This document shows, one piece after another, positions 44,156-44,239 of a stretch of 64,000 nt of DNA. Where the stretch lies: the NCBI RefSeq assembly GCF_055900595.2, contig NZ_CM148325.1, one strand, 5' to 3'. The position numbers were made by a program, and so were the translations under genes. Under the pieces are notes generated by a model. It had not been told where the DNA came from. It made no database searches and worked only from the letters and a program-made list of their open reading frames with translations. Each line of letters opens with the position of its first letter. The stretch's first letter is position 1.

Positions 44156-44239
44156 TCAGGAAAGATAAAAACGGGTGGCAATCAGTGCGCATAAAATAAG
44201 GATGATAAGAATGAACTCAAAGCGATAACGGCCCACCAT
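44156..44239 (-). CDS. ydgU: 27-aa hydrophobic small protein YdgU
   Basis: Minus-strand ORF MVGRYRFEFILIILILCALIATRFYLS*, found by hand (below the ORF-track length cut-off); matches my recollection of YdgU. Confidence 0.55.
   Translation of the reverse strand: MVGRYRFEFILIILILCALIATRFYLS

Follow-up and report, generated by a model that had tools for sequence, protein, structure and literature searches.

The 27-codon ORF at positions 44156-44239 of the minus strand is ydgU, an already known gene whose function was published in 2026 under the new name samT (PMC13425233). Its product is, with good confidence, a membrane peptide that is expressed from the asr promoter and closes a negative feedback loop on the RstB-RstA two-component system. 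The window, that is the whole stretch of 64,000 nucleotides that was analysed, carries samT together with asr, ydgD and the rstA and rstB genes. Translation of the minus strand from ATG to TGA gives MVGRYRFEFILIILILCALIATRFYLS followed by the stop codon. The 27-codon minus-strand ORF is present exactly as the first-pass annotation had described it, and the 27-residue ATG ORF also figures in the mechanical ORF list. Its assignment as a gene coding a small inner-membrane peptide is based on translation, on NCBIfam, on synteny with K-12 and on purifying selection.

The peptide matches the NCBIfam equivalog NF052476 (small_YdgU, "small membrane protein YdgU") with 71.5 bits for a cut-off of 24, residues 1-27 aligning to profile positions 1-27, and it also matches PRK14758 (72.1 bits, cut-off 66). 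A Pfam-A search with the same 27 residues (E <= 10) returned zero families, MgrB included. In K-12 MG1655, ydgU (b4601) occupies the same slot between asr and ydgD and codes for MVGRYRFEFILIILILCALITARFYLS, which is identical to the window peptide at 25 of the 27 residues. The identification as YdgU, which the first-pass annotation had proposed, is confirmed both by the family match and by a syntenic gene whose product differs at two residues. These lie at positions 21-22, which read T-A in K-12 and A-T in the window; the swap results from two first-position changes in adjacent codons and is accompanied by one synonymous change in the L12 codon. Both residue states at positions 21-22 are found in other genera. 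The two genes agree in their length of 27 residues, their Shine-Dalgarno sequence and their place between asr and ydgD, an arrangement also seen in other E. coli, and the same RstA box precedes asr in both. The tail that follows the stem of the asr-samT hairpin differs by one base (TTAAG in the window, TTTAG in K-12). Of 5426 complete E. coli genomes, 5422 contain the DNA of the ORF region, 5417 of them at a coverage of at least 80%, and a CDS is annotated at the ORF in 29 of 30 records sampled down the ranking of the E. coli matches. Product names in RefSeq at this locus are "hypothetical protein", "small membrane protein YdgU" and "stationary phase-induced protein"; the record that is identical to the window uses the first of them. 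The annotation of ydgU in K-12 reportedly dates from a survey of small proteins by Hemm in 2008.

The length of the ORF alone is not above chance expectation, because 71 ORFs of at least 20 residues overlap the surrounding 4.5-kb stretch. The case for a real gene is cumulative and comes from the Shine-Dalgarno sequence, the match to small_YdgU, the conservation and the experiments in print. Conservation was followed in 80 loci from species-representative genomes of ~25 genera (Escherichia, Citrobacter, Kluyvera, Kosakonia, Buttiauxella, Cedecea, Erwinia, Pantoea, Mixta and others), for which the neighbour ydgD, and not the peptide, served as anchor in order to avoid a bias toward conserved peptides. 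Note that this sample comprises ydgD-bearing genomes only and that Salmonella, Klebsiella and similar genera are absent from its loci; the distribution in these genera is taken from the published report that samT is found in most genomes having asr (PMC13425233). A YdgU-like ORF (26-27 codons as aligned) lies upstream of ydgD and on the same strand in 78 of the 80 loci, with ATG as the aligned first codon in 75 of these 78. Its distance to ydgD is 79-129 nt (mostly 96-122 nt) in 75 of the 78 loci, 224 nt in one and ~750 nt in two loci of Mangrovibacter. The frame is open in all 71 distinct nucleotide sequences, most of which carry stops in the alternative frames. Pooled over the same sequences, pN/pS is 0.325 in the frame of ydgU and 0.98 and 1.88 in the other frames, and the entropy at the three codon positions is 0.84, 0.32 and 1.31. 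Residues M1, F7, E8 and C17 are invariant, and the 54 distinct orthologous peptides define the motif M-[VL]-R-R-Y-x-F-E-[ILF]-[IL]-L-x-x-[LM]-I-x-C-[GA]-x-[IV]-[AT]-x-x-F-[YWF]-x, to which the window peptide conforms. Judged from these alignments, ydgU is a real gene under purifying selection across ~25 genera. A Shine-Dalgarno sequence, GGAGGG, is found at 44244-44249 (-), 4 nt before the ATG of the window gene. Of the 73 loci scored, 71 have its GGAG core 5-9 nt ahead of the ATG and the rest have near variants; when the loci are aligned, two of the G positions do not vary at all.

The first-pass annotation had suggested conservation of the reading frame in relatives, ribosome profiling and epitope tagging as ways to check the ORF. 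The first is provided by the 78 loci with a homologue, the frame open in 71 of 71 sequences and the in-frame pN/pS given above. The other two were already in print with a positive outcome. YdgU figures among the 17 small proteins whose start sites carry ribosome footprints during Mg2+ starvation, and it had been validated earlier by chromosomal epitope tagging (both in PMC11429745). Ribo-seq at pH 4.4 ranks ydgU third by induction, the log2 fold change being 9.22 (~600-fold) in this assay and 12.39 at the RNA level (PMC10746267).

The window peptide consists of MVGRYRFE followed by FILIILILCALIAT, featuring a basic amino terminus of the RRYxFE type and one hydrophobic helix. Its hydrophobic core of 14 residues has a mean Kyte-Doolittle value of 3.28 and the GRAVY of YdgU is 1.5. 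A GFP-YdgU fusion fluoresces at the cell periphery in K-12 (PMC11429745), in keeping, as is the hydrophobicity of the core, with the earlier description of a small membrane protein with a single transmembrane segment. In the reading retained here SamT has a short basic cytoplasmic amino terminus and one transmembrane helix, essentially without a periplasmic domain. On a helical wheel, F7, L11, I15, G/A18 and A/T21 fall mostly on one side, and the variable positions 12, 13, 16, 19 and 23 mostly on the opposite one.

The function of SamT was studied by others in K-12, where translation, membrane localisation, the operon, action in trans, dependence on the RstB kinase and a two-hybrid interaction have been demonstrated. 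At pH 5 both asr RNA and samT RNA rise, and this induction requires RstA. Expressed alone from a distant locus, samT brings back the negative feedback registered by a P_asr reporter at that pH, whereas asr alone does not; the feedback is abolished by the rstA substitutions D52A and D52E and by null or kinase-defective alleles of rstB. In bacterial two-hybrid assays with overproduced fusions SamT interacts strongly with RstB and more weakly with PhoQ and EnvZ (all in PMC13425233). In low Mg2+ neither deletion nor overexpression of ydgU affects growth, the effect of overexpression being negligible, unlike that of DinQ (PMC11429745). Note that the mechanism comes from a single study of 2026 carried out with the K-12 allele (PMC13425233), from which the window allele differs within the helix, at residues 21-22.

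The genes of the RstB-RstA system are present in the window together with asr and samT. The rstA gene (31800-32519 (-); NCBIfam RstA equivalog, 483 bits over ORF residues 21-259) codes for the response regulator that activates the asr-samT promoter, and rstB (30495-31796 (-); NCBIfam RstB equivalog, 831 bits) for the sensor kinase that is the published binding partner of SamT (PMC13425233). They are found ~12 kb from asr-samT. The first gene of the asr-samT operon, asr, extends over 44332-44640 (-) and codes for the acid-shock periplasmic protein, as identified by NCBIfam acid_shock_Asr (99 bits) and by RefSeq annotation. Its promoter region carries an RstA box, TACATATCGTTACA, at 44744-44757 (-), which matches the consensus exactly and starts 117 nt upstream of the asr ATG. 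A scan of the 64-kb window with the consensus TACATNTNGTTACA, allowing up to one mismatch, returned this match and no other. The consensus used here is said to be that of Ogasawara, from 2007. An RstA-box consensus is also cited in PMC13425233. In the 75 loci whose Asr match reaches the asr start, the core TACA-N4-GTTACA is found mostly 114-127 nt, and commonly 117-118 nt, upstream of asr. The RstA box is conserved upstream of asr, and that of the window is a putative RstA-dependent site. Position in the alignment makes TATAGT at 44696-44701 (-) the likely -10 hexamer of asr. A hexamer of this type aligns upstream of asr in E. coli, Siccibacter and Kosakonia and upstream of ydgU in Franconibacter, and is exact in four of five cases, the fifth being TAGACT (Franconibacter locus L023). 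The 5' leader of asr, at 44641-44690 (-), contains just upstream of the asr Shine-Dalgarno sequence a conserved hairpin, GGCCCCGCAGUGGGGUU, that is identical in E. coli, Siccibacter and Kosakonia.

The 91 nt that separate the asr stop codon from the ydgU ATG accommodate two hairpins. The first one after the asr stop, GGCGCG-CCCCCU-CGCGCC at 44296-44313 (-), is a fold prediction. The second, at 44258-44286 (-), is a GC-rich, terminator-like stem-loop of 12 bp that ends 18 nt before the ydgU ATG and is followed by a tail with a poor U-tract, CCUUAAGC. The ORF therefore does sit between an asr terminator hairpin and ydgD, as had been stated. Of 76 loci, 73 have a hairpin of at least 6 bp in the 60 nt that precede the ATG. 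In ~64 of these 73 the hairpin ends 16-22 nt short of the ATG, and GGAG comes 5-10 nt after the stem. Compensatory double changes are seen at each of the 10 predicted stem pairs when 57 distinct sequences are aligned. The 8 nt that follow the stem contain 5-7 T in most genera, 2-4 in Escherichia and 2 in the window (tail CCTTAAGC). With the U-tract of most genera the predicted stem is a canonical intrinsic terminator. A search of the text of PMC13425233 and PMC11429745 found no mention of a terminator. A pairing of the samT Shine-Dalgarno sequence with the C-rich loop of the 44296-44313 hairpin, seen in one predicted fold, was considered and rejected: an alternative fold competes with it, and it is not evidently conserved beyond Escherichia and Citrobacter. 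The match of NZ_AP027599.1 (E. coli LR-71-1) to the window is interrupted within the asr-samT hairpin, at query position 370 (~44269 of the window), and falls into two separate places of that record, a pattern suggestive of an insertion or a rearrangement that has come between the two genes in LR-71-1.

The presence of this hairpin gives substance to the proposal of the first-pass annotation that ydgU may be co-transcribed with neither neighbour, and would then form an independent unit with its own promoter between the hairpin and the ORF. A canonical terminator separates asr from samT in most genera, the authors of PMC13425233 leave open an internal samT promoter under other conditions, and some RefSeq records call the product "stationary phase-induced protein". 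The published expression data nevertheless contradict this proposal, which we regard as very improbable. Reporter activity is induced in a PhoQ-dependent manner with the region upstream of asr and is negligible with the one that directly precedes ydgU (PMC11429745). On northern blots a samT probe reveals an acid induction that requires RstA and supports an asr-samT operon (PMC13425233), and ydgU is described elsewhere as sharing a transcription unit with asr (PMC10746267). There is also no room for a promoter 3' of the stem, because the U-tract and the Shine-Dalgarno sequence take up the 18 nt (16-22 nt in most loci) that lie between the stem and the ATG. A scan of 43900-44950 for sigma-70 consensus promoters detected none, a result of little weight because the known activator-dependent asr promoter was missed as well. 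Finally, the asr promoter is directly fused to samT in Franconibacter (see below).

Expression of samT through read-through of the asr terminator is the simplest reading of these data, and it would keep SamT well below the abundant Asr. The window hairpin, with 2 T in 8 nt, is without a proper U-tract, which is consistent with read-through; the terminator scan did not call it because its U-tract is poor. Read-through of the asr-samT hairpin is predicted to be substantial with the E. coli tail CCUUAAGC and much lower with the tail UUUCUUUA.

Rearranged loci in several genera provide natural experiments on the association of samT with its neighbours. In Franconibacter (loci L023 and L024, ~2650-2900) the asr CDS is missing, and the RstA box, the conserved leader and a -10-type hexamer (TATAGT in L024, TAGACT in L023) are found directly upstream of samT, whose product starts one codon later in both loci and has 25 residues (MRRY...). 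By its gene arrangement Franconibacter is a natural asr-less fusion of P_asr to samT. The order in Mangrovibacter (loci L063 and L065, ~1750-3000) is asr-samT-asr-ydgD: each of the two asr copies has its own promoter-leader and terminator, samT stands behind the first copy alone and ydgD behind the second. Both asr and samT are lost from the Tenebrionibacter locus L067, in which the ydgD-proximal element described below is kept. Buttiauxella warmboldiae (L042) has lost asr along with the asr promoter, and its samT lacks both the ATG and the otherwise invariant F7; in Intestinirhabdus alba (L012) the samT start codon is lost and asr is intact. Together these loci imply that samT is tied to the asr promoter and not to ydgD, and that it can persist without asr.

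The downstream limit of the samT unit is probably marked by a conserved element, CTCCCACTTT-N13-CTATAGT, which occupies 44107-44136 (-), after the stop of ydgU and ahead of the start of ydgD (43235-44056 (-); trypsin-like serine peptidase by annotation in matching RefSeq records). The element is unique in the window and was matched in none of 100 shuffles. The 28 aligned loci, which range from Escherichia to Pantoea, all share its CTATAGT (44107-44113), and the element is kept in Tenebrionibacter L067 despite the deletion of asr and ydgU. CTATAGT is probably the -10 of a promoter belonging to ydgD itself, without a recognisable -35. A literature search for a ydgD promoter or for the element at 44107-44136 found nothing relevant.

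These features bear on a second reading, in which ydgU would be a cis-acting leader peptide or uORF controlling ydgD in the manner of mdtU-mdtJI, rather than a protein acting in trans. The rather constant position of ydgU on the strand of ydgD, at the 79-129 nt (mostly 96-122 nt) found in 75 of 78 loci, would fit such a role, as would the conservation of the asr-ydgU-ydgD array from Escherichia to Pantoea and a ydgU-ydgD gap in which the scan of the window detected no terminator-like site. We nonetheless hold this reading to be very improbable. The whole peptide is under purifying selection (pN/pS 0.33) and has a conserved helix face, both atypical of leader peptides; samT restores feedback from a distant locus (PMC13425233); a complete second asr is inserted between ydgU and ydgD in Mangrovibacter; and the promoter-like element upstream of ydgD survives the deletion of ydgU. 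Membership in the MdtU type of leaders or uORFs was rejected on the pN/pS over the ORF, the separation in Mangrovibacter and the function in trans.

A third reading, by which YdgU would be a membrane-damaging peptide resembling type I toxins or else a functionless hydrophobic ORF arisen by chance, can be dismissed: the peptide is indeed short and very hydrophobic, like Ibs, Ldr and TisB, and chance ORFs of such length are common, but its overexpression barely affects growth (PMC11429745), no antisense or antitoxin RNA family is recorded in Rfam at 43800-45000, and chance is excluded by conservation in ~25 genera with a pN/pS of 0.33. The Rfam search was carried out on both strands of 43800-45000 (E <= 1) and gave 0 hits, on which ground membership in the type I toxins (Ibs, Ldr, Hok, TisB, DinQ) was rejected for this locus.

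SamT as a feedback peptide of RstB-RstA, the reading retained here, can be laid out as follows. At low pH or low Mg2+ phosphorylated RstA would activate the asr promoter, rstAB being itself under the control of PhoQ-PhoP. Transcription that gets past the hairpin after asr would carry samT, whose translation would start from its own strong Shine-Dalgarno sequence; the low ratio of SamT to Asr would be set by terminator read-through. In the membrane SamT would bind RstB and lower phosphotransfer to RstA, closing a negative feedback loop as MgrB does on PhoQ. Contact with RstB may be made from helix to helix, through F7, L11, I15, C17, G/A18, A/T21 and F24 (mostly on one face), and/or through the juxtamembrane RRYxFE segment. 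The window allele (A21 T22) is expected to behave like that of K-12.

The asr-ydgU-ydgD array (43235-44640 (-)) is conserved in order, strand and spacing in ~25 genera (loci L004-L083). YdgD is a predicted periplasmic trypsin-like serine protease that adjoins the lysine-rich periplasmic Asr. Asr is proteolytically processed. A functional link between YdgD and Asr, for instance processing of Asr by YdgD, is pure speculation, and a search of the literature for such a link found nothing relevant. Deletion of ydgD affects acid resistance (PMC13339887). A wider conjecture, doubtful as it stands, is that the asr terminator acts as a dial for the Asr:SamT ratio and the net sign of the feedback, strong in most Enterobacterales and weak in Escherichia, and that asr-samT-ydgD might form an acid-envelope module in which YdgD is tied to Asr (for example as a processing protease) or to SamT. 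Neither the dial nor the module was found in the literature searched.

Two further small ORFs of the window were recorded. The first, at 44896-45015 (+) between the asr promoter and ynfM, is also hydrophobic and has 39 codons, or 34 from an internal MNPF start. It matches NCBIfam NF033695 ("KPN_01571 family protein") with 64 bits for a cut-off of 35 and is annotated by PGAP in some E. coli genomes, not in K-12 MG1655. Homologues were found in 11 of the 80 loci; those outside Escherichia lie ~1.7-1.9 kb upstream of asr, not beside its promoter. The second, at 42238-42408 (+) upstream of mdtJI, is annotated in RefSeq as a 56-residue "protein YdgV" starting from GTG and in K-12 as the 33-residue mdtU only (42307-42408). 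The two annotations share one reading frame and differ in their starts.

The identification of the ORF adds nothing new in itself, ydgU being annotated in K-12 and its function being in print since 2026. Its practical value lies in the many RefSeq E. coli records, that of the window-identical strain included, in which the product is still a "hypothetical protein". In addition, ydgU is shorter than common cut-offs for ORF length and makes a good positive control, demonstrating that reading by hand recovers real small genes. The present analysis itself provides the identity of the window ORF, the purifying selection on its frame, the conserved RstA box and the covarying terminator beside the samT ribosome binding site. 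It is a modest extension of what was known: conservation of the peptide and of the RstA box was followed through ~25 genera, and the incremental additions are the terminator abutting the ribosome binding site, the weak U-tract of Escherichia, the Franconibacter fusion and the conserved residues with their helix face.

SamT works like MgrB, the PhoQ inhibitor of 47 residues: both are small single-pass inner-membrane proteins induced by the very system whose kinase each inhibits. MgrB has a periplasmic carboxyl-terminal part, whereas SamT is without a periplasmic domain. The mgrB gene stands alone, whereas samT comes after asr in an operon, with a terminator ahead of it. The likeness is functional only, the two proteins having no sequence relationship (no match in Pfam-A at E <= 10); the parallel is drawn explicitly in PMC13425233. 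The asr-samT pair also resembles ugtS-ugtL of Salmonella, in that a single operon encodes a positive and a negative modulator of its own two-component system, but UgtS antagonises UgtL, whereas Asr and SamT act independently and at different pH (PMC13425233). MzrA (EnvZ), SafA (PhoQ) and YoaI are likewise membrane peptides that bind histidine kinases and tune their signalling (PMC13425233, PMC11429745). They differ from SamT in being activators of, or connectors between, systems, whereas SamT is a repressor of its own.
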